A DNA stretch of 64,000 nucleotides from an uncultured delta proteobacterium (GTDB lineage: Bacteria > Desulfobacterota > Binatia > UBA9968), in contig CAVUZH010000008.1 of NCBI GenBank assembly GCA_963745835.1, positions 64,001 to 128,000 on the forward strand. The letters are read 5' to 3'. The position numbers and the translations under genes are program-made. Below the pieces are notes generated by a model. That model saw nothing but the letters and a program-made list of their open reading frames with translations, made no database searches and was not told the origin of the DNA. This document shows positions 12,485 through 62,257 of the stretch, one piece after another. Every line of letters begins with the position of its first letter. The stretch's first letter is position 1.

Positions 12485-12621
12485 TACCGCCTCCTGCGTG
12501 AGATGATAGATTTCTATCACCTTTGGTTTCAGTTCGAAATGGATATCGGCTGGAATTGTCGGCGACGGTGCGATATGGGTACGGAAACTTAATATGTGAT
12601 CCAAACCCGAAAGGAGTCTTT

Positions 12622-32711: not shown

Positions 32712-35699
32712 TCACTGCGCTCCCGTAGTGTCCTCGATGGCGAGCAGAATTCTGCCCGTATCGATATCCTCCCGGTAAACTTTACGGGCGTTCAAGAGCA
32801 TCTTCTTGTGTCCAATGCCAGGAAAATCATGCTCAACGGCGAAATCTTGAAAAGAAGCGTTAGTGGTTAGGATTTTCTCCAGCAATTCTCTCAGGCTGGG
32901 GATATTCCACTGCCCGTGGCCCAACTCGTAGAGCAACACCCCTTCCGTGGACCCGGGTTGCACTTGGAAGGTTTGGTAAAAAGACCGGCTAGCCGTAATT
33001 ACCTTCAAATCACCATCCAGAACCACCAGTGAATCGCGGATCGTCGCGACGATGCTCTTAGATAATCAAGCATCTCCTGCTGAACCAAAGCCCTCTTACT
33101 TTCAGTGATATCCGTGAATGTGATCACAACACCGTCAACCAAGTCGTCCACGGTACGGTAAGGCATGATGCGACTAAGGTAGGATCGACCCTCATTGTTT
33201 CTCACCTCCATCTCATTGGGGATGAGCGTCTCAAGGACTTTCTTCGCTTCCGCATGGACGGGCAATTCCAGGTTGAAAACAAGATGATTCAGGGGTCTTC
33301 CAATATCAGTTGGGATCAAATTCACGATTTTGGTCGCTGCAGGAGTGAATCGCTTGATGAGCAGACTGCTTATCGAGAATAAATGGTGCAATATTTGTGT
33401 TATCGAGCAGATTCCTCACGTCGTCGTTCATGACCGTCAATTCGTCGATCTTACCCTGAAGCTCCGCATTGACTGTCACCAGTTCCTCGTTAATCGATTG
33501 CAGTTCCTCCTTCGAGGTTTCTAATTCTTCGTTAGCGCTTTGCAATTCCTCATTAGTGGACTGAGACTCTTCATTTGCCGATTTAAGCTCCTCGTTGGAC
33601 ACCTCCAAATCTTCGATGCTCCTTTTGAGATGCTGTCGAGCAAGCTTCAACTCGCTCTCCAGTTGAGTGCCATAGCCCGCTCCCCTGCGCTTTGGCGTGC
33701 CCTCTTTCATCTCAACGCCAATATCCTCAAAAGTAACCACCATCATCCCAACGCTTCCGTCCGGCTTGACCTGTAACGGCTCGATGCTGATTTTGATCTT
33801 CTTAAGTTCCGTCTCGGGGCTCAAGATCAAACCTTCCACCACAACCCGTTTCTTTCGGATAGCGGCTTCGTGAATGGCGGCGGCCAACGCATCTTTAATA
33901 CCTGGATGGGCCATATCGTGAATATTCAACGCGGCGTGCCCCTGAGGCAGCTCCAGGTACTTTCCAGCTCGGCCGAAGGCATACACGATGTCGCCGTTCT
34001 GATTGATGAGCACAGATGGGGAAGTATATCCTTCCAGGAGCTTCTTTTCAGTCAGATTCGTGACGACCGGGCCGTTATCGTCCTTCTTCTTTCCGGGCCG
34101 CCCAGGCGCAAGGTCGGGTCGGGCATGCGTTAGAGGCCTGACAAGGATCTCCCCAACGGCTTCATTGGCGAAAGCTCCGCCATTCCTCCGTCTAAAAATT
34201 TTGGATTTCTTATCCACTGGAGAAAAGAGATGACTGAAGATGCCGATGCTCTCTGAGGTGCCTAGAAAGAGAAGACCTCCGGGCTTCAGAGCATAGTGGA
34301 AAAGACGCAACAACTGCTTTTGTAATTCCGCTTCCAGGTAGATCAAGAGGTTTCTGCACGTAATTAAATCCAATTTGCTAAACGCCGGGTCCCTGATGAG
34401 ATCTTGTTCGGCAAAAACCACCATGTCGCGGAATTCTTTTTTGACGCGGTATACGCCGTTGTCTTTGAGGAAGAACCGCTTCAACCGCTCGGCCGTGAGT
34501 TCGGAGACAACGCTCCCTGAATACACGCCCGCGCGAGCCAAGCTGATTGCCTCGCTGTCGACATCCGTCGCGAAAATCTGTACTCGAAAGCGTTTCTTAA
34601 GTTTGCTCATGCACTCATAAAGCAGGATCGCGAGCGAGTAGGGCTCTTCCCCGGTGGAGCAGCCGGGAGTCCAGATCCGAAATGTGCTGTCCTTGGGGTG
34701 TTTCCGTAAAGTCGCACTGAGTACTTTGCTCAGGCTCTTAAATGCCTCAGGATCGCGAAAAAAGTGGGTGACACCGATGAGCAATTCTTTAAAAATGGCA
34801 TCTATTTCCAATGGATTTCGTCGAATAAAACCAAGGTAGGAAGACAGGCTCTTGATGCGCTGCACGCCCATCCTTCTTTTAACCCGCCTGCTGATGGTGC
34901 TCTTTTTATACGATGAAAAATCATGGCCGGTTTGGGACTTAAGCAGACGGAATAACTCCTCCATCGATTCTGCAGGTTGTTCCACGTGCGTACCAACATC
35001 TCCTTTAAGATGTCGGTCGCTCACATATTTCATCAACTGGGCCGGCATCTTTTCCGCCGGCAAGCTATAATCGACGAGACCGGTTGCAATGGCGCTCCTG
35101 GGCATCCCATCGTATTCGGCCGACGCTGTCGCCTGGGCCATCGCCATGCCGCCTTCGGCTTTGACATCCCGGAGTCCCAACGTCCCGTCGGTACCGGTTC
35201 CCGAAAGGATGATGCAGATAGCCCGCTGCTTCCGGTCCCGCGCTAAAGAGCGAAAAAAAGTGTCTATGGGAAATCTCTGCCCATGCGGCTCCGAAGGTTT
35301 TTTCAATACCAACGTCCCGCGTACGAGGGTCATTTCTTTGTTGGGGGGTATGACGTAAATGCGGTCGCGCTCGACACGTATGCCGTCTTGGGCTCTGTCC
35401 ACCATGATCTTGGTGTATCTCTTCAGCAAATCGGGCAGCATGCTGCTATGCTTTGGATCCAGGTGAGAAATTACGATGAAGCTCATCCCGCAATTGACCG
35501 GCATGGTTGAGAAAAAACTTTCAAGCGCTTTCAGACCGCCCGCAGAAGCGCCGATTCCGACTATGTGAAAGCCGTCCTTCCGATCTTCAGATACTGCAGC
35601 GGAGTCGCTGGTTCGGCGCACCTTGGCTAATTTCCGACTGGCGGGCTTAGCGGCTTTTTTTGCAAAGATTTTTCCGCTTTTTCTAGCCACCATTGTCAT
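32712..35699 (-). pseudogene. CheB/CheR fusion with coiled coil and PAS domains, frameshifted near 33360-33390 and 33050
   Basis: GIGASAGG, SHL, ILSGTGTDG (CheB), IGVTHFFRD, GCSTGEEPYS, CRNLLIY (CheR), EELQSANEELETSKEELQS. The PAS parts lie in ORFs 33005-33391 and 32712-33026. Confidence 0.88.
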
Positions 35700-36458
35700 A
35701 AACGGGGTCAAATATCCGATATACTAAGGCTCGTTGTGAACTTTCAAAAGCAAAAAAAACAGCTATTGTTGTATACTTTTGCTCCGCTTATTGATCACGA
35801 TACGGATCGCGAGATGAGGGGTACATTCCTTATACGCGCCTTATCAGGTTGCCGCAAACCCATAGACTCACCGTCCCATGCCGTTCAGACCCAGACTCAT
35901 GAGCCTCTGCTGTGAGATTATCGTGATCTGCTGCCCTGAGTTTCATCTCTTGCAGTGCATCAAGTAATACTTTGCTTTGCCGAGCGGCGATATTCTTTGA
36001 TGCCAAACACAACGAACGAACTTTGCTCTTCTTTTCCAAGCAAGCAATCCAACTCAAGCCTTGCAGAAAAAACAATTGCCATATCGCCCGACAGCTTCGA
36101 TTCTGAAGCTATGGCAGGAGCTACCGAAACTGTTGAAGCGCCTGTTAAGTTTCGACGTCATGCAGGGGTAAGCACGCCGGCTCGCCGAACTACTCACTCC
36201 AGGATCGTTCACTATTAGACAGCAATCAATTCGGAGCGTGATATCTGTCATTAGAGATCCGGCAAATAACTACCCGGATGCCAGGGCAAGCTTTGTTCCA
36301 AGTGGATCCCTCGAGCAGTGTCCGTGAAGCTTCCGAAACCTTGGTGATCATGGCACCGCTGGGCCGAGCCAGGATCTGTCGCTCGCACATAGTTAGCGGC
36401 GCCGTCTGAGCGCGCCATTTCGTCAACTTAGCTCAACCGGTTAAATAAGGAGAAGTCG

Positions 36459-36557: not shown

Positions 36558-36843
36558 TCCTCCCCAACGTTCTCAGGTTCAGAGAAGACTTCAGCCGCTT
36601 AACTTCTCGCCGGCAGTGAGCGCACACATTTGCGCGGTGAGCCCACAGAGACGATCTGCCGACCATCAGTGCGGATGTCCGTAATAGACTTAGGAGCCGC
36701 ACAAAATATTTTTTCACGATTGTCCACTATTAGACAGTACCGATTTCGCTCTCGCGATACGCAGTGCTAGTCTAGAGATCTGACGTTTCGAATAGGGTCT
36801 CGGGCACGACAGAGCCATACATACTTCAAAGGAGCAACAATTG

Positions 36844-37654
36844 ATGGAGCGAACAAGCGAGGGAAACGGCTTTCCAAATAAATCCCCTGGCTCGGAATCT
36901 AAACATATCGCCGATGGGATTACGCCGCTTAAGGCAATAGCGGGCGGACTGCAGCCGCACCACAAACAGTCGCAGCAACGAGCGCAGGTGAGGCGGTTTA
37001 CCGCTCTCTTGAATACGACGGCCGCCCTCTTTGCACATGAAGTTGCCAGCCCTCTTCAAGGAATGGCCGCCTCACTCCAACTGATCGAGCGCGACCTCAA
37101 AACAAACCATGATCCGCTATTGACAACAACGATGCGCAGTTTCAGGCGAGAAGTCGATCGTTTGATTATCTTGCTTGAGGAGTTTCGCTCCGCTTCGGTT
37201 CCGCAAAATTTAAATCTTACCGGCAGTGATTTACGACAGGTAGTCGAAGACGCCTTAGCGATACAGCTGGTCGTCTATCAGACTGCCGGAGTTAACATTA
37301 AACTAGAATTTAAGGACGGCTTGCCGGCTGTTAAATTAGACACGGCAAAAATAAAGCAGGTAATCTTGAATCTCTGCAGAAATGCCCTCGATGCCATGCC
37401 CCAAGGAGGAGATCTAACGATTAGAGGTTACTCCTTGGGCGCCACTGTAGTTTTGGAGATCACAGATACGGGGATTGGTATGCCGGAGGGTATCAGATCC
37501 TTTCGCATTATTTCAGACCACGAAGGTGCATGGTAGCGGCTTGGGCCTGCCGATTGTAGAACAAATCGTCTTGGCCCATAACGGCACGATCGACTATACA
37601 AGCGAGCCTGACCTGGGTACGACATTCAAAATTATTTTTCCCGCTGCAGTTTAG
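36844..37654 (+). pseudogene. Sensor-less histidine kinase (HisKA + HATPase), frameshift near 37505
   Basis: [51 protein letters not shown] continues in another frame to TAG at 37654. Confidence 0.8.
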
Positions 37655-40890: not shown

Positions 40891-41788
40891 TTAAGCGCCT
40901 TTTTTTTCTCCTGGGGCTTTGCCTTCTGCGCTTGCATGTTCGAGTTCGGCATTGATTTCACCGCCCACCAAAATGACGAATCCGCTGACGTACATCCAGG
41001 TCAGCAGCACGATGATGGCGCCGATACTGCCGTAGGTCTTGTCATATGAGCCGAAGTTATTAACGTAGTACGAGAAACCCAGTGAGATGAGTATCCAAAT
41101 AATCACGGCAAGAACGGATCCCGGAGTAATCCATTTCCAACTCTGATCGACATCGGGTGCGAAGTAATAGATCGCGGCGACGGCGGTCATCAACCAGAAT
41201 TAAGATGACCGGCCAGCGTAGAATATTCCAGGCGATCTCGAAGGCTCTTCCCAACCCAACAAGGTCGGCAATCCAACCCCCGATCTGCGGCCCGAACATC
41301 AAGAGAACGATCGAGGCAATCAGAAAGATCGATAGACCAACGGTTAATAGGATCGCCATACCGCGAACTTTCCAAAAGGGCCGGCCTTCTTCAACGTCAT
41401 AGGCATGGTTTAGAGCATCCGAAATCCCGGTAAGCGCGCTGGACGCGGTCCAAAGGGCCGCCACGATGCCAAATGAGAGCAGCCCGCCGCGTTGTTGTGA
41501 AACCAGCTTGCCGACATTATCTTTTACCAAGCTCAATGCTTCACCCGGCATAACCTCGGCTAGCAAGCCGATGATCCGGTCCATCAGATTTGGAATCGGC
41601 AGATAAGCCAACAATGCGGTCAAAAAAAGAAAGAACGGAAAGAGCGCAAACAGGAAATAGTAGGCAAGCGAAGCCGCGTAGACTGCGCAATTGTCCTGCT
41701 GCACTTCGGCGATAACCCGTTTGATGAGTTGGGTCGCACGCACTCCACGCAGCGAAAAAGTATCTTTGAGATCTTGCTTGACGCTCAT
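40891..41788 (-). pseudogene. Second YihY/BrkB family protein, frameshift near 41190
   Basis: AASLAYYFLFALFP, LNHAY (ORF 41060-41788) plus YYFAPD, YGSIGAIIVLLTWMY, GGEINA (ORF 40891-41193). Confidence 0.88.
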
Positions 41789-42114
41789 CAGAATCTGCCG
41801 CGCTTTGCGACGCTCAACTAGAGCAACGGACCGCCGGCAAAAACCGCAAAGCCTATGCCATGAAAAAAAGAAAATCGTTCGGAGAGCATTCCGGCCACTG
41901 TCTCAGCCATGCGAAAACAAAGGCTTCAACTCTCCATCTACGGGACGATGGTAGAGCCGCCATTCGGTATAGATAAATAATAAGGAGGAAGGTTTATCAT
42001 CGGCCTCGATGTGGTGGCGTGCAAGCGGAAACAGGAAGCGCAAAAAGCACGTTATGGGAGGTCTACTGGATTTTCAACGCTTTTGGTTTATCATATGTTT
42101 TCTCCGGGAATCAC

Positions 42115-43194
42115 ATGGAATATAGAACAGACGATCTACGAATAAAGGAAATAAAGGAGCTACTGCCGCCGGCGCAAGTGCTGCGCGATATCGCGATCAC
42201 GAGCAAGGCCGCCGAGACAGTATACCGGACGCGCCAAGCCATTCACCGAATCTTGCACGGTGCTGATGACCGTCTGCTGGTTATCTTGGGCCCATGTTCG
42301 ATTCATGACGTTAACGCCGCTAAAGAGTATGCCGGCAAGCTCAGAGAAGTGAAGGAGCGCCTCAGCAGTGATCTACTGCTGGTGATGCGTGTGTATTTCG
42401 AGAAACCGCGCACCACCGTCGGTTGGAAGGGGCTGATCAACGACCCCCAACTTGACGGCAGCTTCCGCATCAACGAAGGCTTGCGTATCAGCCGTCGACT
42501 CTTGCTCGATCTTAACGAGATGGCGGTGCCGGCGGGTTCCGAGTTTCTCGACATGATTACCCCGCAGTATGTCGCTGACCTGGTTTCCTGGGGAGCTATC
42601 GGCGCGCGCACGACCGAGAGTCAAGTGCACCGCGAGCTTGCTTCCGGCCTATCCTGTCCCGTCGGTTTCAAAAACGGCACTGACGGCAACGTCCGCATCG
42701 CCGTTGACGCCATCCGCGCCGCGCAAGCTCCGCATCATTTTCTCTCCGTAACCAAGGACGGTCATTCGGCGATCGTCTCAACCACCGGCAACGAAGATTG
42801 CCATGTCATTCTGCGAGGCGGTCGTAATCCCAATTACGATGCAAAAAACATCGATGCAGCGGCGAAGGGTATGGCGGAAGCCGGCATATCGGCGAGAATT
42901 ATGATCGATTGCAGCCATGGCAACAGCGGCAAAGAACCGGAAAAGCAGGTCGAGGTCGGTCGTCAGGTTGCCAGCCAAATTGCCGACGGCGATGCCCGGA
43001 TCTTCGGCGTTATGATCGAAAGCCATCTCAAAGCAGGCCGTCAAGATCTGATGCCGGGCAAAGAACTCGTCTACGGTTTAAGCATCACAGACGCGTGTGT
43101 CGGCTGGGAAGACACCGGCAAATTGGTAGAGGACCTCGCACATGCAGTTCGCCAGCGTCGCCTGAAGGCGGCTACTGAGGGCGAAGCGGAGTAG
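42115..43194 (+). CDS. aroG: 3-deoxy-7-phosphoheptulonate (DAHP) synthase, class I-alpha
   Basis: GPCSIHD, RVYFEKPRTTVGWKG, IGARTTESQ, GFKNGT, DCSHGNS, SITDAC. The AroG/F/H subtype is not resolved. Confidence 0.95.
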   Translation: MEYRTDDLRIKEIKELLPPAQVLRDIAITSKAAETVYRTRQAIHRILHGADDRLLVILGPCSIHDVNAAKEYAGKLREVKERLSSDLLLVMRVYFEKPRTTVGWKGLINDPQLDGSFRINEGLRISRRLLLDLNEMAVPAGSEFLDMITPQYVADLVSWGAIGARTTESQVHRELASGLSCPVGFKNGTDGNVRIAVDAIRAAQAPHHFLSVTKDGHSAIVSTTGNEDCHVILRGGRNPNYDAKNIDAAAKGMAEAGISARIMIDCSHGNSGKEPEKQVEVGRQVASQIADGDARIFGVMIESHLKAGRQDLMPGKELVYGLSITDACVGWEDTGKLVEDLAHAVRQRRLKAATEGEAE

Positions 43195-43579
43195 GGTTAA
43201 CGCTGGAAGGCCATAGCTGCTTGCAGATCCCCAGCAAGATCGGACCAACTCTTTAGTTTTCCTTCGGTATCACATTCCCCGGTGTTTCATCCTATGTAGC
43301 AATGTCATTGATAATTAATCCGCGAGTGCTTGATCTTATCCTGTGACTTGCCCGTCCCACGTTGCCATCCACTCAAATAATTCCGTGCCGATCAATCACG
43401 GTTAAATTCCTTAAGATACTCTCAATCCTTTTCACTGATGACGTGATTTTCCGCCGTGGAGTATCACTTTGCGATAAGCCGCACATACTTCCTCTTCAGA
43501 GAGCAGCCAATCGCATTATTGAGTTTTTTTGGTGAGGTGAACAAACATATAGCTAAAGTCTGGAATACACAGCCACTGC

Positions 43580-43608
43580 TTGACATCCACTTCCATTTCG
43601 AATAAGTC
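43580..43608 (+). promoter_or_regulatory. Possible sigma70 promoter of the three-gene secreted cassette
   Basis: TTGACA-17 nt-TAAGTC about 85 bp upstream of ATG 43692. Confidence 0.4.
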
Positions 43609-43691
43609 GCCCCGTCGCAGTTAACAGTTCAACGGCTCTATGACTGCCCCAGGATTAATCATAATCACTCGATCTGACACCGAGGGCGCCA

Positions 43692-46262
43692 ATGACAAGA
43701 CAGCTTTGCTTCTGCTTCACTGTTGCGATTTGTGCCGTTCTTTCGCTTGCTCTTTTCCACCCTGTATCAGCGCAGCAACTCGGGAGAGTCCTCTACGTCA
43801 ACAAAACTGACAACACCTGCAACGGTCGATCTCCCTGTCATCCGAAAATTCAGGCGGCGATTGACGTCTCTGCTCCCGGTGACACGATCCGGATACAAGC
43901 TGGGACCTATCCCGAACAGCTGAACATTCAAAAGAATGATTTTGCGAGCGCCGAGGAGGCAAGTCGTATCATCATTGAGGCGGATCCGGAGAGCGCTCCA
44001 GGCGCGGTTGTATTGACTGGATCTGCGGGTACCCAATGTACCAACAAATTTGCCATTCGTATCAGGCGCTCTAAATTCGTTACAATCCGAGGCCTAACGA
44101 TCACCGGCACCGGCGCTGAAGCGATCTTCATGATGGGTGGTGCCAATAGTAATCAGGGCATAAATATCGTCGAAAACCGCATTTACGGCAACGGTAGCAG
44201 TTCATGTAATGGTGGCATCACTATCGCTCGGGGAAACCCGGAGACGCTTATCGTCAACAACCTGATACACGCCAACGGACAAAATGGAATAGCCCTAATC
44301 GATGGGGACGGTGGCCCTCACTACATCATCAACAACACCGTATACGCCAACCAATGGAACGGTGTCTCCATCGCCTCGGGGAGGGACGTATTTCTTGTCA
44401 ACAATATTATCAATCAGAACGGTACCGCCTCAGGTACTAGTGGCGGACGTTTCGGCGTTCAGGTAGAAAGCTGGACCGCACCAACACCCGAGCGCGTTCA
44501 TCTGCTGAATAACCTGGTTTGCGGAAACCGGCAAGGAGAGATCTTTGGACAAGCTCTCGATACCACGGATTCCGGCAATCTTTCGCCGCACGGAACCGAG
44601 GGCTCGGGCTTTACTCCCAGCGCGGGATGCAACAACGCGGACGGTGTGCTGGCCAATGTGAAAGGTCCTGACGGCATCGCAAACACGAGAGACGATGATT
44701 ATAGGTTATTAAGCGTTTCACCTGCGCTCGATAGCGGCCTAGACACCCGCACTCTAGGCCTAAGCCCACTCTTTAATCCCATCTTAGAAGGCGACTACTA
44801 TATAGATCTAACACGCCCTAGAATAGGAAAGCGCGGAAATCATGCTCAGTTTGATATCGGCGCTCACGAATATATAATCGCCAACCAATCGCCAGTGGCC
44901 AACGCCGGCCAAACAGTGACAGTGACATCCGGCACGATCGTCAGTCTTAACGGCAGTAGCAGCTTCGATCCCGACGGTGATTCGCTTAGCTATCATTGGG
45001 CACAGACCGCGGGTCCCGGCGTGACCATTTCAAATCCTACTGCCGCCGGCCCGGTATTGACAGCGCCAACAGTCCAAGGGCTAACGATTTTAACTTTTCA
45101 ACTCACGGTCAGCGACGGCTTAGTAGATAGCTCGGCAAGCGTCAACATTACAGTTACCAAACCAAACCAGCCGCCGGTGCTTTCATCTATTGGCGACAGA
45201 ACAGTAACAGTCGGAAGCACTCTTCAATTCACCGTCAGCGCCAGCGATCCGGACGATGATCCTTTGATCTACTCCGTTGCGCCTTTACCGGCAAATGCTG
45301 CGTTCGATGCCGGCACGCGATTATTCGCATTCACGCCGATTGTAAGCCAGGTAGGCTCGTTCAGTCTCACCGTAGCAGCGAGCGACGGCAAAGGAGGGAC
45401 GGCATCAGAGAGCATCAGGATCACCGTGACGGCTGGGTTAGCGATCAACATCACGACTCCGACCAATGGCGCGACCGTGCCGTCAGGACAGCTCACCGTG
45501 CGTGGATCGATAACGAATCCCACTGGAGGTGAGGTAGGCGTAACGGTGAATGGGTTTCCGGCGTGGATTCAGGAGAATACGTTCACGGCATTGGTCTCCG
45601 TGGCACCTGAGACGACGAGCCTCACAGCGTCTGCAACTTCTCGGAACGGGGCGACAGCCACCCATATGATAAAGATTGGCCTTTCTGAGTCATCGATTCC
45701 CGCTCTTATGCTTCATGCCAGCCCGAATAGTGGTACGGCGCCCCTTACGGTTACGTTCTCATTGCTTACTGATTTTCAGACTACGCACGTGAGCTTTGAT
45801 GCGGACGGCAACGGTGAGATCGACTATAATAGTCCGCAACTGAACAATCAGATCTTCACTTTTACAGATCCGGGTGTTTACGTTGCTATAGGCACGGCGT
45901 TCGATGCTCAAGGGAATCAGTTTGGTGCGGATGCCATCATTCAAGTTTTCGATTCTTCACAGTTGGATATTATTCTGAAAGCCAAGTGGGTTGCGATGAA
46001 AGATGCCTTGCGAGTTGGAAATATCGAGCTGGCGTTAAATGAGATCGTAGCTCGGTCCCGCTCGCGCTATGAAGAAGCGTTTCAGATAATCGCGACACAA
46101 CTACCAAACATTGATCAGATACTTCCGAATATCTCGTTGGTTCGCATTGGGAATCTCTCGGCAGTTTACGAAGCCATTCGTATAGATGATGGTTTGGGAA
46201 TGTCCTTTGAGGTGCGCTTTGCAATTGATGGAGACGGTATTTGGCGAATGGAAACATTCTAA
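43692..46262 (+). CDS. Secreted protein: right-handed beta-helix, four PKD/Ig-like domains, and a roughly 100-aa C-terminal alpha+beta domain
   Basis: Signal peptide, IQAAID..PGDTIRIQAGTY, Asn-ladder repeats (NNLIHAN, NNTVYAN, NNIINQN), NQSPVANAG..SFDPDGD, NQPPVL..ASDPDDD, ITTPTNG, GTAPLTVTF, terminal DGDGIWRMETF. Confidence 0.85.
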   Translation: MTRQLCFCFTVAICAVLSLALFHPVSAQQLGRVLYVNKTDNTCNGRSPCHPKIQAAIDVSAPGDTIRIQAGTYPEQLNIQKNDFASAEEASRIIIEADPESAPGAVVLTGSAGTQCTNKFAIRIRRSKFVTIRGLTITGTGAEAIFMMGGANSNQGINIVENRIYGNGSSSCNGGITIARGNPETLIVNNLIHANGQNGIALIDGDGGPHYIINNTVYANQWNGVSIASGRDVFLVNNIINQNGTASGTSGGRFGVQVESWTAPTPERVHLLNNLVCGNRQGEIFGQALDTTDSGNLSPHGTEGSGFTPSAGCNNADGVLANVKGPDGIANTRDDDYRLLSVSPALDSGLDTRTLGLSPLFNPILEGDYYIDLTRPRIGKRGNHAQFDIGAHEYIIANQSPVANAGQTVTVTSGTIVSLNGSSSFDPDGDSLSYHWAQTAGPGVTISNPTAAGPVLTAPTVQGLTILTFQLTVSDGLVDSSASVNITVTKPNQPPVLSSIGDRTVTVGSTLQFTVSASDPDDDPLIYSVAPLPANAAFDAGTRLFAFTPIVSQVGSFSLTVAASDGKGGTASESIRITVTAGLAINITTPTNGATVPSGQLTVRGSITNPTGGEVGVTVNGFPAWIQENTFTALVSVAPETTSLTASATSRNGATATHMIKIGLSESSIPALMLHASPNSGTAPLTVTFSLLTDFQTTHVSFDADGNGEIDYNSPQLNNQIFTFTDPGVYVAIGTAFDAQGNQFGADAIIQVFDSSQLDIILKAKWVAMKDALRVGNIELALNEIVARSRSRYEEAFQIIATQLPNIDQILPNISLVRIGNLSAVYEAIRIDDGLGMSFEVRFAIDGDGIWRMETF

Positions 46263-46274
46263 GGAACACGAAGG

Positions 46275-46901
46275 ATGATGATTTGCACATCGAAAACCGG
46301 CAAATTCCTGCAACGCCTAACGAGATGGTGGGCGGTCGCACTTTTGGTAGTCCTTACATTAAGTTGTCTTGGGGTGACTGAACGTGCAACTGCCGCTGGG
46401 CCCTGGAAAGGACAAATTGTCGATAAAGAAACGGGAAAGCCATTGGAGGGGGTTGTTGTGCTGGCGACTTGGTACAAAGCATACAGCACACACGGCGGGT
46501 GGGGTGGTGCTGGGTATCACGATTCGGAAGAAGTCGTGACGGACACGAACGGTCGATTTACGATTCAGTCAAAACAAACGTGGACGATAAATCCGTTCAG
46601 CACCATCAAAGGCCCGGAATTTTACATATTCAAACCTGGGTATGGGCAATGGCAGTTTGAAGGTCAGGATCGATGGAGTAAAGACGCGCTGGAAAGTGAA
46701 GAACAACGAAAGCAAACATGGCAAAAATTCGTAGGCGAAGGTGTAACGTTGGAGTTGCCGAGACTGAGTTCGCGTGATGCTAGATTGAAATTTCTTAAAA
46801 GACCAGATGGTGAGATCCCATCGGACAGAATGCCACAGTACCTCGAAGCACTTGATCAAGAGCGCATAAGCTTAGGTTTAAGACCAGGTTACGTGCAGTA
46901 A
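46275..46901 (+). CDS. Exported carboxypeptidase-regulatory-like (beta-sandwich) domain protein
   Basis: Hydrophobic leader then GQIVDKETGKPLEGVVV, TDTNGRFTI, IFKPGY. Confidence 0.8.
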   Translation: MMICTSKTGKFLQRLTRWWAVALLVVLTLSCLGVTERATAAGPWKGQIVDKETGKPLEGVVVLATWYKAYSTHGGWGGAGYHDSEEVVTDTNGRFTIQSKQTWTINPFSTIKGPEFYIFKPGYGQWQFEGQDRWSKDALESEEQRKQTWQKFVGEGVTLELPRLSSRDARLKFLKRPDGEIPSDRMPQYLEALDQERISLGLRPGYVQ

Positions 46902-46912
46902 AGGAGTTTAAT

Positions 46913-49900
46913 TTGCGCAACTATAGTCTCGTAGGTCAACTACTCTCTCTGCTTGTAACTATCCTATTAGGCTGTCCTACTGCACTTGATGCGTATGACA
47001 TTGGAACTCATCAGCGGATCGCTGAGCGAGCGACAGACCAATCGGTCGTAAATACATATCTTCGTGACCAGTTAGATCTTCGAGAGGGAGCAAACGAAAT
47101 CTTCCTTGGGCGCTCGGTACGGGACTGGATCACTTTCGGGACTCGATTCGAAGACGAACCTTCAGCTCGTGTCCTAAATCACTTTCACAATCCTTTACAG
47201 GCGTGGGGACAGGCAGGTCTCACTCTACCAGTGTTGGGACAACGCGGCCAGTCTTCCATTTTTTGGGGGCAGAACCCAAATCAAAACCCTGGAGGTAAAT
47301 GGTCTTGGCTGGATTTGCGAAAGAAGTACGCGGAAGCGTTGAGCTTGCCGACGAGGTTCAGCCGTGACCGATCCTTTGCAGACCTGTTTCGTGGCCTCGG
47401 CCATCTGAGCCACCTGGTGCAAGATGCAACCGTTCCGGCACATGTGCGGAATGATTCTCATGTGTGCCTGCCGGTTCCTTTTATTAACATCTGTCCACCG
47501 ATGAATCCTGATTGGTACGAAGATTGGGCTGAAAGAAGGCGAGATCAGGTAGATGCCTTCATAGCTTTACAACCCATCACACCGGCACACTCAATTTTTA
47601 CGCCAACAAATGACAGCCAAGCTAGAGTTCCCATAGCGCGGCTTGTTGATACTGACAGATTTCAGGACGGAGACTTTTCGATACTCTCCGACGCGAATCT
47701 TGGAACTTCAGAATTCACGAGCGGAAATTTCCTTAGTAGAGACCGTATCTTTAAAGTCTTTACGCTGCCCCGAACTAGTAGCTTAGACTTGGATAATCCA
47801 GTGGTTATCCCGGAGGGCATCAGTTTTAGGCGGTATTACAGTAAAATTCGAGAGGGAGTCTCAGTGCATCGCTTTATCTCAGAAGGAATGCTTTGGAAAG
47901 CATTAGTAACCGCGAGACAAGCGCCGCCTCCATCTGGTGGTTGGACAATGGACGATCGAGTTCATGCGGATTACGCAAAACTTCTTCTTCCCCGCGCGGT
48001 CGGCTATTCAGCAAGCCTGTTCGATTATTTCTTCCGCGGCAAGCTCAACGTTGACGTGTCAACCGATCCGAACGATATGTCACTAGTGCGGGTTGAGGGA
48101 ACCAACGGGTCGACGGAGAAACTCGATGGTGGAACTCTCGAACTCTACAGCGAAGATATTACCGGAGCACGGATCGCGGCTACACCAGTTGGCACGAATA
48201 CGGTAACGGCAGATCCGGGCCAGCCGATATCGGCTACTTTTAGATTGCCAGCCAATAGCGACAAGTTAATGGCGGTTTACAAAGGAAAGCTCGGTGACGA
48301 AGCGCCACAAGGTGATTTCCCGGGGGCTATTATCGGCAAGTCTCTTAGCCCGCAACGTGTTGAGCAAATCTTTTCGGATTCGATCCGTTGGTACATTAGA
48401 AATTCCAGCGGCGCGTTTCCGTTGTCACTTTTGAAATCCGACCTCGACGATCTCCAGTGGGGCGACAGTGGTAACACGCTTGTGGGGCGGAGCCGTATAG
48501 GACCAGGGCAGCCGAACTTATTTTACACATACAGAATCAATCGACTCGTCGGAGCGACGCACATCCCACTCACAGCGAACAATGAGGTGGATATTCACAC
48601 CATACAGCAGTACTCGTTTCCAATGGGCGTAGGCATTGGCACCAACGCACAATTTTCGCATACGTTGCCTTACAAGCAACATCTGTTGTGGAAACAGATT
48701 AAGGCCGTTCAAACCTGGGTGCCAACGGAGTTAGACAATCCCGCGGCGGGTTCCTATATCTCGGGGCCATCTGAAGTTATGTACGGGATAAGCCTGCTCG
48801 TAGACGAAGTTAAGTCCACCAGCTTAAATTACTCACTTCTGTTGGACGAAAGTTCGCATGTCTTCGGCACTGGTGCGTCTCAATACAACTGGAACGTCTG
48901 GAGTATTCATCTTACGGACGACGGAAGACCTCTGGCGCTTGTCCAGATTAATCTTACGAGCAACAGTCTTGGAACCGCCACCTTCTCTTCACGGACACTT
49001 GGCGGTGGAGGGAATGGAAGTGCCGCGCCGCCGATTATTGAATTACCTTCAGTGCAGGTTCCGTTCGGATTGCCAGAACTGGGACCCATCTGGGCTTTGA
49101 TCGATATAACAACGGGGCAGATTCTAGCCAATACGGCTCCGCCGAACGTGGTGATCAACCACACCAACGGGCGAACGGTTTATCATCCGAGCCAGGCGCC
49201 GACATATCGAGTATTATCGACAACGCGGTACTTTGGCGGCCCACAAAATGGCGCAATCGAGCCCTGGACCGCTGCTGACGATTCTATTCCGCCAGTCCAT
49301 AACCGAAATCAATGTACCGTCGATCGGCTAAATGCAATGAACGTGGTTGCCAGTCAATCGGTTAGTCCGCCTCATGTTCAAACCCAGTTAACGCAGAACC
49401 GTGCCGAAATCGGTCAGCTCGACTTCGGATCCGTCCCATTTACTTCCGGGAGTGTTCTTAACTTCGCGATCGATTGTGGTGATGCCCTTAGCCCGGCGCA
49501 GGGCTTCCGAATTGTTGTAGCTCCTGGGCCGTTGTTTGCGCCTAACAACATTGGCGAGTTTGGTGCCGGCGTGCTGCGCATTACACCTACGGCCGGAACT
49601 GAAAAGCTCGTGTTTCTCATGAGTCAGGCCCAGAATGACTCGGTCTCCAGCCAGCGGACGAAGTTGATCGCATGGAATCCAGAGCTGTCTCGTATTGATG
49701 CGGTAAAAGAATTTACCGATCAGGGGCTTCACGCGCTTACGACGGCGAGCCGTGACGCCGCACTGTTTGTCACTATTGGCATCACTAGCAACCAGTCCAG
49801 GCTGGTCGATTTTTCGACAGAGAGCGCAACATCAGTTTCGAATCAGCTCCTGTTCGACTATTCCTTGTTGGATCCGTCCTATTTGTACAATACGAGCGAT

Positions 49901-50029
49901 TTCAAGTTTCACAGCAAAGACCCCTCTTTGGCTTCGACCGGCACGCCGGTCAGTTTGGCGCCTGCGCTGAGCGGAAATCCGCGGGGGCGCTATCACCTGC
50001 TAAGGATCGGCGGAGGAGCGTTAAACTGA
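46913..50029 (+). CDS. Secreted Zn-dependent phospholipase C/P1-nuclease-fold protein with a long unknown C-terminal region
   Basis: AAGGAG RBS with TTG start. Signal peptide ends ALDA, mature start YDIGTH, then EDEP..R..NHF, GHLSHLVQD..VPAH, YEDW metal-ligand pattern. Confidence 0.75.
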   Translation: MRNYSLVGQLLSLLVTILLGCPTALDAYDIGTHQRIAERATDQSVVNTYLRDQLDLREGANEIFLGRSVRDWITFGTRFEDEPSARVLNHFHNPLQAWGQAGLTLPVLGQRGQSSIFWGQNPNQNPGGKWSWLDLRKKYAEALSLPTRFSRDRSFADLFRGLGHLSHLVQDATVPAHVRNDSHVCLPVPFINICPPMNPDWYEDWAERRRDQVDAFIALQPITPAHSIFTPTNDSQARVPIARLVDTDRFQDGDFSILSDANLGTSEFTSGNFLSRDRIFKVFTLPRTSSLDLDNPVVIPEGISFRRYYSKIREGVSVHRFISEGMLWKALVTARQAPPPSGGWTMDDRVHADYAKLLLPRAVGYSASLFDYFFRGKLNVDVSTDPNDMSLVRVEGTNGSTEKLDGGTLELYSEDITGARIAATPVGTNTVTADPGQPISATFRLPANSDKLMAVYKGKLGDEAPQGDFPGAIIGKSLSPQRVEQIFSDSIRWYIRNSSGAFPLSLLKSDLDDLQWGDSGNTLVGRSRIGPGQPNLFYTYRINRLVGATHIPLTANNEVDIHTIQQYSFPMGVGIGTNAQFSHTLPYKQHLLWKQIKAVQTWVPTELDNPAAGSYISGPSEVMYGISLLVDEVKSTSLNYSLLLDESSHVFGTGASQYNWNVWSIHLTDDGRPLALVQINLTSNSLGTATFSSRTLGGGGNGSAAPPIIELPSVQVPFGLPELGPIWALIDITTGQILANTAPPNVVINHTNGRTVYHPSQAPTYRVLSTTRYFGGPQNGAIEPWTAADDSIPPVHNRNQCTVDRLNAMNVVASQSVSPPHVQTQLTQNRAEIGQLDFGSVPFTSGSVLNFAIDCGDALSPAQGFRIVVAPGPLFAPNNIGEFGAGVLRITPTAGTEKLVFLMSQAQNDSVSSQRTKLIAWNPELSRIDAVKEFTDQGLHALTTASRDAALFVTIGITSNQSRLVDFSTESATSVSNQLLFDYSLLDPSYLYNTSDFKFHSKDPSLASTGTPVSLAPALSGNPRGRYHLLRIGGGALN

Positions 50030-50240
50030 TGCGATTAAACACCGGTCTACTCTTGGCGAAATGACGAGCATGAGTGTTTCAGACGGACACCATCCATGGA
50101 CTAAAAACTTTTCGCATAAACTTTTTTGAAGCACCGATCGACGGTCGATATATCGGGATAAGAATCCCATTCAGGCGCCCATGCGAGACATTTTGAACTC
50201 CAGAACCGCCTTCAGGTTATGCAGTGTACTCACAGAGCGC
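49893..50240 (+). repeat. Direct repeat, copy 1 (PLC-like gene 3' end + spacer + mgtC 3' remnant)
   Basis: 49893-50029 is identical to 61902-62038, near-identical to 50119/62129, then diverged similarity to about 50240/62257. Confidence 0.95.
50171..50240 (-). pseudogene. Diverged 3'-terminal remnant of mgtC
   Basis: Translates RSVSTLHNLKAVLEFKMSRMGA* versus RLVNTLHNMVTVQEFKMSPMGD* at the end of the intact gene. Confidence 0.8.
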
Positions 50241-50702
50241 CCAATCATTTGCTGTCCGTCAAAAGGACGGTCATTCGGCCATCATCCCAACCACCGGCAA
50301 CGAATATTGCCCTGTCATTCTCCGCGGCGGTCGTAATCCCAATTACGATGCAAAAAACATCGATGCAGCGGCCAAGGGTATGGCAGAAGCCGGCATACCG
50401 GCGAGAATTATGATCGATTGCAGCCATGGCAACAGCGGCAAAGAACCGGAAAAGCAGGTCGAGGTCGGTCGTCAGGTTGCCAGCCAAATTGCCGACGGCG
50501 ATGCTAGGATTTTCGGCGTTATGATCGAAAGCCATCTCAAAGCAGGCCGTCAAGATCTGATGCCGGGCAAAGAACTCGTCTACGGTTTAAGCATCACAGA
50601 CGCGTGTGTCGGCTGGGAAGACACCGGAAATTGGTAGAGGACCTCGCACATGCAGTTCGCCAGCGTCGCCTGAAGGCGGCTACTGAGGGCGAAGCGGAAT
50701 AG
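50237..50702 (+). pseudogene. Duplicated 3' portion of aroG (copy of 42727-43194) with two 1-bp deletions
   Basis: Colinear match through GAAGCGGA(A/G)TAG. The first about 95 bp are diverged and the rest is near-identical. Confidence 0.95.
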
Positions 50703-52425: not shown

Positions 52426-53426
52426 ATGCAGCGAATTACAAACAAAATCGATTATTTGTTGATTTTGGGGTTGATAACGCTTTTTGGACCCTATTATCTG
52501 CAAGCCGCAGATACCGATCGCATCGCGACGAGAAGTAGCTTTTACAACCACCGGAGCAATACAGTTACCCTTCTATTTGGCGAAGGAGACCGGCCTCTTC
52601 AAAAAGCACGGTATCGACGTGGAAGCCATACTGCGCAGGAAATATCGCCATGAGAGCTCTGGCTGCCGGGGAAGTGGAGGTCATTGGTGGGTCGGGAGCA
52701 TTCCCGATTGTAGCGTCGCTGCAAGGCCTCGATAATATAATTATAGCAGCGAGCCAGAAGTTTTTGGATTATCAGCTGCTTGTGCTTCCTCGCCTTGAGA
52801 AACCGACGGATTTGATCGGGAAGAAACTTGGTATAAGCACATTTGGCACGGCCTCCGATTTTGCTCTTCGCGACATTTTACTTCAAGTGGGAATAGATCC
52901 GGCGAAGGTAGCCATCGTGCAAACTGGAGATACATCTGCGCGACTCGCATCTCTTTTGTCCGGGAACATTGACGGGACCATCCTTAATCCACCAACATCG
53001 TTTATGGCCCGAAAAAGGGCTACGAATTCTCTTGGACAGCAGTGAACTCCGGATGCCTTACATGGAGGAGCGGTCATTACACGAAGGCAGATCATCAAAG
53101 ATTCGCCGGAAAAACTTAGACGTTTCATGAGAGCCTACATAGAGGCTACTTATGTTTTTAAGACCAACAAGGAAATTTCCGTTTCAACACTACAAAAATA
53201 TAGCCGACTCGGGGACGGCGAGATACTCGATGAAACCTATTCCTACTATGAAACGCAATTCCCCTTGCTTCCGTACCCCTCGCGCGAGGGCATTGTAGCT
53301 ATTCTAAAATCTATTGCCTCAAGAATTCCTTCGGCAACCGATGCCAAACCAGAGTCGTTCATCGACACGCGCTTTGTTGCCGAGTTGGAACGAGATGGGT
53401 TTATCGCTCGGCTCCCTGGCAAATAG
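52426..53426 (+). pseudogene. NitT/TauT (NMT1-like) ABC substrate-binding protein with several frameshifts
   Basis: Fragments LPFYLAKETGLFKKHGIDVE / ALAAGEV..GKKLGISTFGTASD / YPSREG..FIDTRFVAELERDGFI in three frames. Confidence 0.82.
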
Positions 53427-56734: not shown

Positions 56735-57499
56735 TTGGACGCAATTAAAGTGGCGATCTTTCGAGGCATCGATAGTCCAACATTCGCAACTTCCGGGTTT
56801 GTCTTATCCATCCGCCGTTTCCGCCGATATTTGCCGCTGCTCGTGGGGGTGATTATTCTTGTTGGGCTGCGACCGCGGTCATGGCAAGATGAATTTTTGA
56901 ATAGTCTGACTACTTGGATCGGCATTGCATTCTGTGCCCTCGGGCAAGGATGGCGGTTATGGGCATGGGGGAGCAATGCCAATGCCGGAAAGCGCGCAGT
57001 TCGCAGTCGCGGTCCCTATGCTCTGATGCGTCATCCGCTTTATACCGGGAATTTTTTTATTCTCCTGGGCGTTACGGTGAGCTTCAACAATCCCTGGGCC
57101 TATTTACTTTTGCTAGTTCCGTTTGCGTATCTTTACCATCTCATCACCAACCTTGATGAACGACGGATGAGTGAACGTGTTGGCGTTGCCTATAAGACCT
57201 ATACGGAGGAAACTCTGTCGCGATTTCTACCGCAATTTAGGAATCTCAAGCGGGCCAACCGTACGACAGTGCCGTTCAATTTTCTGTACGCATGGCGCAA
57301 GGAATACAACTCCATCTGCGCATGGCTGGCGGGTGTCCCAACGCTCGGAATATATCGTGATGCCGTGACTTACGGCTGGGAGCAAGCATTATATGAAAAC
57401 CCAATTTCGTTGGGTGTCAGCGGGTTTTGTGGCGCTCTTGCGATTCTACTGAATGTGCGAAGGCACATCGGTCGAAAAAAACGATTACTGAAGCATTAG
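56735..57499 (+). CDS. Isoprenylcysteine carboxyl methyltransferase / PEMT family membrane methyltransferase
   Basis: RLWA.G, GPYALMRHPLYTGN, DERRM...Y..Y...RFLP. The start position is uncertain. Confidence 0.85.
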   Translation: MDAIKVAIFRGIDSPTFATSGFVLSIRRFRRYLPLLVGVIILVGLRPRSWQDEFLNSLTTWIGIAFCALGQGWRLWAWGSNANAGKRAVRSRGPYALMRHPLYTGNFFILLGVTVSFNNPWAYLLLLVPFAYLYHLITNLDERRMSERVGVAYKTYTEETLSRFLPQFRNLKRANRTTVPFNFLYAWRKEYNSICAWLAGVPTLGIYRDAVTYGWEQALYENPISLGVSGFCGALAILLNVRRHIGRKKRLLKH

Positions 57500-58454
57500 A
57501 AAGAACCGACAATGCGCCACTGCGCTTTCCCGATTCGTAGCAGGAGTCTTTACGCTTGGCGATCACTCCCTCAAAGCCAAACTCTTTGACGACTTGGATC
57601 AGTTCGGCAGGCGTTGCGTCGATGCTCTCGGATAACGCAATTGACGATGCGTTTCGGGTGAGCGGTTTCATTATGTCGCTCAGCACTTCACGTCGTTTCG
57701 AAAGTGGTTCGTTGAGCAGATTGATCCCGCGATAAATCAGGACATCAAACGCATAAAACAACAATGCTTGTGCTTGCGACCGATGATGTTGAAGCAGGTT
57801 GAACGAGATACGCCCGTTCTCGTCAATGGCTACGATTTCGCCGTCGAGCAGTGTGCGCGGCGGGAGCTGTTCACATGCTTTGGCGATGTTCGGGAACTGC
57901 GCCGTGAAGTCATTGCCGCGCCGAGACCACAACGTCACTCCTGTGGCGTCTTTGCCAGCCAAACAGCGATAGCCGTCGAATTTGACTTCATAGAGCCAGT
58001 CGTTGCCATTCGGGTAGCTGCTGGACGAGCTGCGCGTACATCGGTTCGACGAACTGAATCGTAGCCGCTCTCGCAGCGGAGTTGGACTTTGCTTTTGGCA
58101 TTTCGCGGGAGGGTTACGACGTGAAAAGCGCCCAGGCGATTTCGTAGCCGCAGATGGCGCAGCGCCCGTGGATCGGCTGGTAGCCACTATCGCTTGGCTT
58201 TGCGATGACTACCCCAAAGTAGTTGCCGCATTTGGGGCAGTTTCTGGCGAGGTAAACGGCCATGTAAGTACAAGTTTAACTCTGCTGGCGGTTTCTCTCA
58301 ACCTGAAGTCAAACCGGAAGCTCTTTGAGCATTTAGTCAGGGTTCTGACTTGGTGTTCGAGTTTACATTCCCATTACCAAGCCGTTCGACAAGAAGCGGT
58401 AGACCCGCCAACCACGCTGTGAAGAGGACAAGGTTTTTGCTAAGCTTCTTGGCT

Positions 58455-58565
58455 ATGAATTTCTTTAAAACAAAAGTCTCCGTTATTTACGCAATCATCC
58501 CTGCGATAGGTTGGGTCTTAACGTTTCTTTCGGTATGGGTGTTTTCTGGGAACGAACAAAAATAG
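58455..58565 (+). CDS. 36-aa single-TM small protein
   Basis: MNFFKTKVSVIYAIIPAIGWVLTFLSVWVFSGNEQK*. No clear RBS. Confidence 0.3.
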   Translation: MNFFKTKVSVIYAIIPAIGWVLTFLSVWVFSGNEQK

Positions 58566-61232: not shown

Positions 61233-61391
61233 GCGAAATCGGAATAGTGCTTGAAGACATAGATCGCGCCTCACCAAAGGATATAATTAAGGCGAGGTAT
61301 TAAGGCGACGAAAAATTGAAAGACTTAAATTAGAGTCGTATAACAGTCGCACAACCTGCATTATGCGACCATACTCGAATCGAGGTAGTGG

Positions 61392-61791: not shown

Positions 61792-61901
61792 TCTTCCCAC
61801 GCCGGTCACCGGAGGTGCTGAACTACGGCCACAGGGACTCCCAACTCGGTTTACCGGGTTTTCCCGTCCTAAAACAACGATTTTGATCGTTTGCTTACAA
61901 T

Positions 61902-62257
61902 CGAGCGATTTCAAGTTTCACAGCAAAGACCCCTCTTTGGCTTCGACCGGCACGCCGGTCAGTTTGGCGCCTGCGCTGAGCGGAAATCCGCGGGGGCGCT
62001 ATCACCTGCTAAGGATCGGCGGAGGAGCGTTAAACTGATGCGGTTAAACACCGGCCTCCCTCTTTGCGAAATGACGAGCATGAGTGTTTCAGACGGACAC
62101 CATCCATGGACTAAAAACTTTTCGCATAATGCCCTCTTTTCGAAGCAACGATCGAGAAGAGCCGACATGCCGAAATAAGGATCCCAATCAATCGCCCATG
62201 GGCGACATTTTGAACTCCTGAACCGTGACCATGTTATGCAGCGTATTCACCAAGCGC
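61902..62257 (+). repeat. Direct repeat, copy 2; includes an orphan copy of the last 44 codons of the PLC-like gene
   Basis: SDFKFHSKDPSLASTGTPVSLAPALSGNPRGRYHLLRIGGGALN* is identical to the end of 46913-50029. Confidence 0.95.

Follow-up and report, generated by a model that had tools for sequence, protein, structure and literature searches.

The three-gene cassette described here lies at 43692 to 50029 on the plus strand of a 64,000-nucleotide (nt) stretch, referred to below as the window, of contig CAVUZH010000008.1 (GCA_963745835.1, positions 64,001 to 128,000 of the forward strand; all positions given are 1-based within the stretch). The contig originates from an uncultured delta proteobacterium (GTDB lineage Bacteria; Desulfobacterota; Binatia; UBA9968). 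With a confidence slightly above even, the trio is read as one operon for a zinc phosphodiesterase that is exported, guarded by a partner protein and equipped with a targeting subunit; in this operon gene 3 (g3) would provide the enzyme, gene 2 (g2) the guard and gene 1 (g1) the targeting subunit.

The first gene, g1 (43692-46262), is an open reading frame (ORF) of 856 amino acids (aa) for an exported modular binding protein, g2 (46275-46901) encodes a small exported partner of 208 aa, and g3 (46913-50029) starts with TTG and comprises 1038 aa. The preliminary description of this DNA had reported three co-oriented genes 12 nt (g1-g2) and 11 nt (g2-g3) apart, an N-terminal export signal on each of them and a set of g3 motifs directly after the predicted cleavage site; the ORF list and the translations confirmed all of these points. 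The three N-termini comprise a basic and then a hydrophobic stretch ending in a small-x-small pattern, with predicted cleavage at VSA-QQ in g1, ATA-AG in g2 and LDA-YD in g3. The motifs in g3 are ALDA-YDIGTH (residues 24-33), NHF (89-91), GHLSHLVQD (163-171), VPAH (174-177) and YE (202-203). An AGGAG sits 6 nt upstream of the TTG start of g3, and a GAAGG is found ahead of g2. Among 60 g2-to-g3 junctions in related loci, 24 showed a 4-nt start/stop overlap and 2 a 1-nt overlap, while in 29 the g3 start lay 0-30 nt beyond the g2 stop. Since 535 g3 homologues were obtained at E ≤ 0.001 (among 7999 candidates scored) and 464 genome loci encode a g3 relative, the three are, as judged by sequence comparison, genuine genes and not chance ORFs.

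The assignment of the N-terminal part of g3 to the zinc phospholipase C (PLC)/P1-nuclease fold class, as a divergent member, is supported by four independent lines that agree: the conserved positions, the predicted mature N-terminus, the profile matches and the fold search. A signal peptide (aa 1-27; 46913..46993), whose predicted cleavage leaves Tyr28 as first residue, is followed by a helical domain that is zinc PLC/P1-nuclease-like in profile, Foldseek and conserved residues, and is therefore referred to as the putative catalytic domain (aa 28-375; 46994..48037). In alignment A2, which comprises 115 rows of g3 homologues with 32-84% identity to the window protein, position 27 is occupied by A (73), S (12) or G (10) and position 28 by Y (89), F (6) or W (2). 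An aromatic residue (Y/F/W) right after an A/S/G site was present in 97 of the 115 rows, and a histidine five residues on in 99. The mature N-terminus of g3 is thus predicted to be an aromatic residue, Tyr28 in the window. Furthermore, H33, E80, D81, H90, F91, H92, P94, H167, D171, P175, H177, H183 and E203 were invariant or at least 90% conserved in the filled rows of A2, and these His, Asp, Glu, Pro and Phe positions were likewise kept in a second set of 63 N-terminal domains taken from genome loci.

The profile built from the 63 N-terminal domains matched the PLC of L. monocytogenes (8cqm_A) in the PDB with E=0.0018, and the full-length g3 profile A1 matched the same entry with E=0.023; it was the sole significant PDB sequence match of the g3 family profiles. 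The alignment pairs HLVQDasvPaH of g3 with HYYTDisqPmH, and YE with YE; in a weaker stretch NHFHNP stands opposite SHFYNP. An AlphaFold model of g3 calculated on A2 reached a mean predicted local distance difference test (pLDDT) value of 91.2. Searched with Foldseek against the PDB, it retrieved C. perfringens alpha-toxin (2wy6_C, 2wxu and 1ca1) with a probability of 1.00 and E from 8.8e-5 to 3.5e-4, these entries being the only fold matches of that probability among the ranks listed up to 50. The nearest named atlas clusters, VWA7_N (CinY) at 0.76 and Zn_dep_PLPC at 0.75, are leads only. Altogether, the profile match to 8cqm_A, the alpha-toxin matches and the ligand conservation support the earlier proposal of a PLC/P1 fold for g3.

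The attribution of individual g3 residues to the nine PLC ligands follows in part what we take to be the B. cereus numbering. As described in the sections drawn on here of a 2023 structural paper (PMC10576769), zinc PLC enzymes hold three metal ions and depend critically on where exactly W1 is placed at the N-terminus: W1F retains activity, while one extra N-terminal residue abolishes it. According to the same sections, the Listeria PLC is controlled by a propeptide and the C2 (second) domain of alpha-toxin binds membranes. With the Firmicutes zinc PLCs (B. cereus PC-PLC, L. monocytogenes PC-PLC 8cqm and C. perfringens alpha-toxin 1ca1), g3 has in common the all-helical catalytic domain, the profile-aligned motifs HxxxDxxxxxH, HF(Y/H)xP and YE and the aromatic predicted mature N-terminus, and with alpha-toxin in addition a beta-sandwich after the catalytic domain, which in g3 is a predicted one. 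In contrast to these enzymes, g3 lies below all Pfam thresholds, including the curated cut-offs of Zn_dep_PLPC (PF00882), S1-P1_nuclease (PF02265) and Het-C (PF07217), and none of 10 g3 variants from other loci matched Pfam at E ≤ 1e-4. Its catalytic domain is also longer (~350 vs ~245 residues) and contains conserved inserts, the first residue is Tyr instead of Trp, a separate partner takes the place of a propeptide, and a tail of ~560 residues is added. Finally, the hosts of g3 are diderm uncultured phyla, whereas zinc PLC homologues had so far been found only in Bacillus and Clostridium, as stated in the part of the structural paper used here (PMC10576769).

The preliminary description had noted a C-terminal tail of about 600 aa in g3. 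A long tail is indeed present, but it resolves into two parts, of which the second is often replaced in relatives. The first part is a beta-sandwich (aa 378-480; 48044..48352), recognised by DSSP on the predicted model, that adjoins the catalytic domain. The Foldseek alignments with alpha-toxin extended over 495-527 columns against targets of 358-370 residues, more columns than the catalytic domain alone would take up. The second part (aa 482-1038; 48356..50026) is a lineage-variable, beta-rich and, in the AlphaFold model, propeller-like tail. Its Foldseek matches to DDB1 and WD40-type proteins had probabilities of 0.2-0.66, and of up to 0.90 in the library of viral structures, where the g3 model retrieved nothing specific, only low-probability propeller or tail-like matches. 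In 50 loci with complete ORFs the homology to g3 ends at residue 380-483 (near 381 or near 464), so that the extent conserved across loci comprises residues 1 to ~380 or 1 to ~465. The window-type tail is reached in 26 of 80 loci, and in 4 the locus ends before the comparison is complete.

In g2, a signal peptide (aa 1-40) precedes a beta-sandwich (~43-125) and a helical tail (~130-208), as delimited in alignment A4; the tail closes with a conserved ER..LGL motif. The window protein matched CarboxypepD_reg in Pfam weakly, with 19-20 bits, which is below the cut-off of 32, while 21 of 49 g2 relatives matched PF13620 at E ≤ 0.01. A lipobox-like cysteine was found by a strict pattern in at least 6 of the 49 g2 proteins, including that of the window (TLSC at residues 28-31).

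Residues 28-480 of g3 with three zinc ions and residues 41-208 of g2, both with their own alignments, were submitted to complex prediction. The median score was 0.89 (runs of 0.62, 0.89 and 0.90), compared to 0.00 for the best of three controls. The score mark is reached by 116 of 157 solved complexes and by 2 of 215 mismatched pairs, and is approximate for the present case, which used custom alignments and zinc. The runs share at least 47% of contacts, with a partner pLDDT of at least 81. On the side of g3, the confident interface comprises four putative zinc ligands (D81, H90, H183 and E203) as well as residues 29-31 and 34; on the side of g2, it is made up of loop 67-80, which is variable, and of the helical part at the C-terminus. 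The contacts of lowest error connect g3 58-71 with g2 171-206. This prediction supports a binding of g2 to g3 on the face that bears the proposed metal ligands, and it agrees with the earlier suggestion that g2 is the partner of g3.

A g2-type protein is also found in other surroundings. Seven longer proteins containing it were matched, in which it is joined to repeats of the ankyrin or HEAT type or to arrays of CarboxypepD domains; P0252-P0255, for example, combine the g2-type beta-sandwich with ankyrin/HEAT repeats in 550-690 aa and lie outside the trio. A single g1-g2 ORF in locus L073 was considered as a true fusion and rejected, since it is a lost-stop read-through that retains the signal peptide of g2.

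The third component, g1, comprises a signal (aa 1-27), a beta-helix head (~50-390), an array of immunoglobulin (Ig)-like and PKD domains (398-742) and a terminal alpha/beta domain (748-856), as derived from Pfam and the model. Pfam assigned Beta_helix and NosD (both within ~119-260), K319L-like_PKD, Big_9, He_PIG, Glucodextran_B and PKD, while the final ~110 residues were unmatched. The conserved tail (aa 580-856; 45429..46259; alignment A5 with 61 sequences) was modelled from the 61 homologues with a pLDDT of 95.8 and shows two Ig-like domains that are followed by four helices and a sheet of four strands. All that Foldseek retrieved for this tail were tandem Ig domains, and none of the 61 members had a Pfam match in the last domain. 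The order of helices followed by a sheet fits an NTF2-like domain, and the atlas leads DUF4440 and Cds6_C (0.83-0.85) are below the reliable level. A search for short proteins with the last domain gave 16 matches, apparently short or partial g1-like proteins, without a Pfam assignment for that domain. Across loci the part conserved in g1 is ~470-856, and the heads differ between lineages: NHL propellers, FG-GAP, Lcl_C lectin-like, fn3 and CarboxypepD_reg arrays were found in proteins of up to 3113 aa.

Whether the three families occur together elsewhere had been named beforehand as a test that could refute the idea of a module. In a scan of one genome per species, 464 loci encoding a g3 relative were obtained, and the best 80 of the 464 were examined for synteny by searching them with the three window proteins after ORF calling. 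Directly upstream of g3 and on the same strand, g2 was present in 69 of the 70 loci with more than 700 nt upstream; 68 were detected by script and one, L056, was missed by the filter (g2 at 9276-9875), which leaves L051 as the true miss. In the 63 loci with more than 1700 nt upstream, g1 was found in 61, the misses being L031 and L068. The families do co-occur, and these loci show, as far as gene order and sequence can tell, that the trio is inherited as a unit across phyla. In L068, a 3114-aa upstream ORF clusters with trio proteins. Other shared neighbours were not found, the next commonest neighbour cluster occurring in 9 of the 80 loci. The degree of identity between pairs of loci is correlated among the three parts of the trio (rho 0.56-0.77, Mantel p=0.001), a relation that is confounded by shared descent.

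All 80 loci appear to be metagenome-assembled. Their host labels comprise Rokubacteria (21), Methylomirabilota (14), Nitrospirota-type (29) and deltaproteobacterial (9) genomes, as well as Chloroflexota, Acidobacteriota and Actinomycetota (1 each), three unclassified genomes and one Klebsiella-labelled bin. A quick tree separated a Nitrospirota-type clade (29 rows) from a Rokubacteria/Methylomirabilota-type clade (34 rows, including the window). The complete trio in the bin labelled Klebsiella pneumoniae (L076) groups with Rokubacteria/Methylomirabilota and is probably located on a misbinned contig.

Several genomes contain more than one version of the trio. L015, L019 and L049 lie in one bin, of Rokubacteria, L067 and L070 lie in a second bin, and these trios are 31-47% identical in all parts. 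An extra g2 with a shortened N-terminal g3 copy was found in 6 of the 80 loci (L035, L036, L052, L057, L068 and L070; Nitrospirota and Smithella loci), placed between g1 and the full g2-g3 pair. The shortened copies comprise 102-223 aa and the longer ones stop just past the PAHxRxD motif; that of L070 is nearly identical to its full neighbour over ~90 residues. The idea that the short copies are orphan toxin tips was rejected, as they are N-terminal duplicates ending after PAHxRxD. Shorter second or partial trios were observed directly downstream in L061 (13114-15311) and L079 (12681-13928), with proteins of ~150-255 aa that consist of the g1 tail only. In L002 (9920-13067), g3 is represented by two ORFs that overlap (9920-11380 and 11322-13067), owing to a frameshift or an assembly error. 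A tblastn search of a plasmid collection with g3 1-480 gave no match.

Based on these data, the function of the operon could be as follows. The three proteins carry Sec-type signals and their genes are tightly coupled, as sequence and synteny show. Cleavage of the g3 signal would expose Tyr28, which together with H33, D81, H90, H167, D171, H177, H183 and E203 could form a trinuclear metal site; the catalytic domain would be followed by a beta-sandwich, as in the two-domain clostridial alpha-toxin, and then by the lineage-variable tail. Since there is no propeptide and signal-peptide cleavage would complete the metal site, g3 is presumably competent already in the periplasm of the producer, i.e. 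cleavage itself would activate it. For an enzyme active at this place, g2 would most likely be the cognate guard: in the controlled complex prediction it covers the catalytic domain on the metal-ligand face, and it might inhibit the enzyme or serve as its dedicated chaperone up to the point of release or engagement. Of the conceivable safeguards or folding aids, a protein exported together with the enzyme and lying over the metal face would be the simplest. By its conserved Ig-PKD-alpha/beta tail g1 would dock to the g2/g3 unit, as architecture and synteny suggest, and its interchangeable head, a beta-helix in the window, could steer the enzyme to a surface. Membrane phospholipids, cleaved at the phosphodiester of the head group, are the likeliest substrate, as the beta-sandwich after the catalytic domain suggests. 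The purpose would be either an attack on other cells or nutrient harvesting.

A number of observations speak against this interpretation. For the enzyme itself, g3 had no Pfam or NCBIfam match even at E ≤ 1, and a PDB search with the single sequence gave no phospholipase, only chance matches with E ≥ 0.43. The alpha-toxin entries rank 11, 27 and 42 by E-value, below propeller proteins, and their template modelling scores (TM-scores) amount to 0.13-0.15 by query and 0.33-0.36 by target, at a root-mean-square deviation of 18-20 A; the low TM-scores can be explained by the use of the whole 1038-residue model as query. In the profile alignment with 8cqm_A, the PLC histidine preceding the YE motif has no aligned equivalent in g3, and we infer that H183 stands in for it. 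The window copy of g3 furthermore contains a lipobox-like LLGC at residues 18-21, shared by 2 of 63 family members; if processing takes place there, the mature protein would not begin with Tyr28. Owing to LLGC in g3 and TLSC in g2, the cleavage sites of both window proteins are ambiguous on sequence grounds. As regards the partners, one of the three complex runs yielded merely 38 contacts, and no g2-g3 or g1-g2 fusions were found among the 7 longer g2-containing proteins. On both sides the interface was less conserved than the rest (0.43 vs 0.52, p=0.003; 0.36 vs 0.53, p=1e-5), a comparison that is confounded by surface versus core and would tend toward lower interface values anyway; a conserved g2:g3 interface is thus unsupported. 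The sole evidence for a participation of g1 is its synteny, and a route across the outer membrane is not evident.

With respect to purpose, nutrient harvesting by the trio is possible but on the doubtful side. Here, g3 would free phosphate or head groups from environmental or periplasmic phosphodiesters, with g2 as a subunit for structure or anchoring, which in some lineages would be a lipoprotein, and with g1 heads that bind polymeric or particulate substrate. The soil and groundwater hosts (35 Rokubacteria/Methylomirabilota, 29 Nitrospirota and 9 deltaproteobacterial labels of the 80), the lectin, propeller and beta-helix heads typical of glycan or polymer binding, and the lipobox-like motifs in g2 proteins would all be consistent with it, and the multiple divergent copies per genome resemble substrate-utilisation loci. 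However, no transporter, phosphatase or regulator is conserved beside the trio, and g2, placed over the metal-ligand face in the prediction, looks more like a cap than like an anchor. Such a cap would also suit a carrier-immunity-toxin module, which we consider rather unlikely and to which the preliminary description had likened the layout. In this case g3 would be a membrane-destroying toxin against competitors or prey, g2 the periplasmic immunity protein and g1 the delivering adhesin. Apart from the cap, the fold class shared with alpha-toxin, the adhesin-like heads of g1, the divergent trios within one genome and the partial g3-plus-g2 duplicates point in this direction, and the variable g2:g3 interface fits a pair-specific co-evolution. 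The co-occurrence of the three genes and a g2:g3 binding are supported, the latter by prediction; the layout itself differs from that of polymorphic toxin systems. The catalytic domain is conserved and the presumed binding parts are variable, which is the reverse of polymorphic toxins, the partner gene lies upstream, and the short g3 copies are shortened N-terminal duplicates rather than orphan toxin tips. The 80 loci contained neither secretion-system, RHS or HINT genes nor anything else as a conserved neighbour, and neither PADLOC (0 of 3 trio proteins at E ≤ 0.01) nor the plasmid collection gave a match. A bolder version appears improbable, namely a widespread three-component weapon, so far unrecognised, of uncultured bacteria from soil and groundwater, in which a swappable-head adhesin would bring an alpha-toxin-like zinc phospholipase to foreign membranes and a pair-specific immunity protein would cap the metal site in the producer, all without a known specialised secretion route.

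The remaining alternatives concern the activity of g3. It is unlikely, though the superfamily includes both activities according to the part of PMC3482391 considered here, that g3 is a P1/S1-type nuclease or another phosphodiesterase and not a phospholipase. The phospholipase 8cqm_A as sole significant PDB sequence match, alpha-toxin as sole fold match with probability 1.00 among the ranks listed up to 50, the absence of S1/P1 nuclease structures from the Foldseek matches listed for g3, and a beta-sandwich after the catalytic domain, as in membrane-binding alpha-toxin, argue against a nuclease. The spacing of five residues between Y28 and H33, presumably that of P1 nuclease and unlike that of B. 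cereus PLC, would favour one. It is very improbable that g3 is a fold relic, i.e. a non-catalytic structural or binding protein of the envelope in a trio that forms a structural assembly. The missing match to any curated family, the large beta-rich tail and the adhesin-like partner would fit such a role. But in the sets of 115 and 63 sequences (30-84% identity) every candidate metal ligand is unchanged or almost unchanged, and the first mature residue is kept aromatic; since this ligand conservation would otherwise be hard to explain, catalysis is favoured.

The comparison with other known systems places the proposed guarded-enzyme operon beside several of them. Exported lipolytic enzymes with an operon partner include the lipases with their Lif foldase, PlcH with PlcR, and the lipase effectors of type VI secretion systems (T6SS) with their periplasmic Tli immunity lipoproteins. 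As in these cases, an exported enzyme is encoded adjacent to a small exported and sometimes lipid-anchored partner, for which binding is predicted in the trio. In contrast, g2 is not related in sequence to any of these partners, the trio includes g1 as a further conserved gene and there is no context of a type II secretion system or T6SS. Het-C, zinc PLC and S1-P1 nucleases are grouped in one fold class in the portion of PMC3482391 consulted. With S1/P1 nucleases and Het-C (Tox-HET-C), g3 shares a predicted metal-dependent all-alpha hydrolase domain with His/Asp ligands and the existence of secreted forms; it differs from Het-C, for which this portion gives the signature HxxxDxxxH instead of HxxxDxxxxxH, and has no Pfam match. 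The polymorphic toxin systems described there likewise have modular exported proteins, a small adjacent partner, divergent copies and partial duplicate cassettes, whereas the trio has a conserved enzyme domain at the N-terminal end, shows its variation in the presumed binding modules, places the partner gene upstream and lacks markers of trafficking domains or secretion. A conserved N-terminal trafficking part with a variable C-terminal toxin, an immunity gene directly downstream and a secretion linkage, by which polymorphic toxin-immunity systems are recognised, are all absent from the trio.

The DNA around the cassette shows a repeated arrangement. The cassette and its leader (43195 to ~50235) are flanked by direct repeats of ~469 nt that correspond to the 3' end of aroG and are 95% identical. 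The left repeat (42726..43194, plus strand) is the 3' end of an intact DAHP synthase gene (aroG-type, ORF 42019-43194, Pfam DAHP_synth_1). The right repeat (50236..50702, plus strand), found by repeat search and alignment, is a piece of the aroG 3' end that has decayed on its 5' side and carries a deletion of 1 nt; it leaves a 137-aa DAHP-synthase fragment after the cassette. This pattern looks like the scar of a single-crossover insertion or of a duplication. The closest relative, L002 (g3 82% identical), has the same order of desaturase, MFS, BrkB, aroG, trio and aroG fragment, so that the flanking arrangement is not unique to the window genome. The earlier picture of a variable slot after aroG is therefore correct in that the cassette follows aroG, but has to be modified with regard to the bracketing direct repeats and the same order in L002. 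An empty aroG site was not seen, although no search aimed at it was made. The non-coding leader (43195..43691, plus strand) comprises 497 nt without an ORF of 60 aa or more filling it, and gave nothing in Rfam at E ≤ 1. A promoter scan found 3 sites compared to 6.9 expected from shuffles, with no sigma-70-like site in the leader; of 14 terminator-like sites (7.4 expected), none was convincingly positioned after g3.

A second copy of the right end of the cassette, consisting of the last 144 nt of g3 and ~211 nt downstream, is located at 61896..62257 on the plus strand. It matched aa 993-1038 with 96% identity in tblastn and was 89% identical over 363 nt in blastn. No further parts of the trio were found there, and the homology overlaps the 3' end of an mgtC-like ORF (62188-62883, minus strand). 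The copy may be what is left of a site that a cassette occupied earlier. The ~3.7 kb from 58200 to 61900, which separate this g3 remnant from a partial ORF for an ATP-dependent DNA ligase (57417-58187, minus strand), contain small ORFs only and essentially nothing that matched Pfam; of 8 ORFs tested (58168-62038), one had matches, all of them sub-threshold, and the region may be degraded or non-coding.

That neighbouring genes are broken, as stated previously, applies to the DAHP-synthase fragment with its 1-nt deletion; for several other flanking ORFs the observation is one of partial Pfam matches. These are 36841-37536 (HATPase_c 2-55 of 111), 41060-41788 (BrkB 1-172 of 259) and 52650-53045 (NMT1 85-145 of 216), and the BrkB homologue in L002 is an ORF of ~356 aa compared to 242 aa here. 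Such partial ORFs may be pseudogenes or result from frameshift errors of the assembly. Further upstream, a single 801-aa ORF on the minus strand (33306-35711) fuses CheB methylesterase and CheR methyltransferase, a chemotaxis adaptation enzyme. No tRNA was detected in a scan of 40-64 kb.

The family to which g3 belongs is large. Searched against 1.84 billion representatives, its N-terminal profile matched 8243 clusters at E ≤ 0.001, of which 6480 remained at E ≤ 1e-10 and 3379 at E ≤ 1e-30. None of the 120 g3 homologues among the matches listed has a precomputed Pfam domain, and wherever a name is given it is 'hypothetical protein'. Literature searches returned no described system with this trio, only a general Het-C/PLC discussion in the part of PMC3482391 considered, which does not prove that the trio is unpublished. 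Together with the searches of Pfam, NCBIfam and PADLOC, this agrees with the earlier statement that no named system contains it. What is new in the trio is the conserved setting of three genes in which an already known fold class appears.

As virulence enzymes, zinc phospholipases C have a place in the textbooks. The g3 family points to a much larger hidden branch of their fold class, whose hosts among the loci examined are diderm and belong mostly to uncultured phyla. The fixed operon provides a testable idea of how a periplasm-exposed, self-activating membrane enzyme could be kept both safe and aimed. Once its function is assigned, thousands of genes of Rokubacteria, Methylomirabilota and Nitrospirota would gain an annotation, and the operon could turn out to represent either a new kind of antagonism between microbes or a new way of acquiring phosphorus and lipid.

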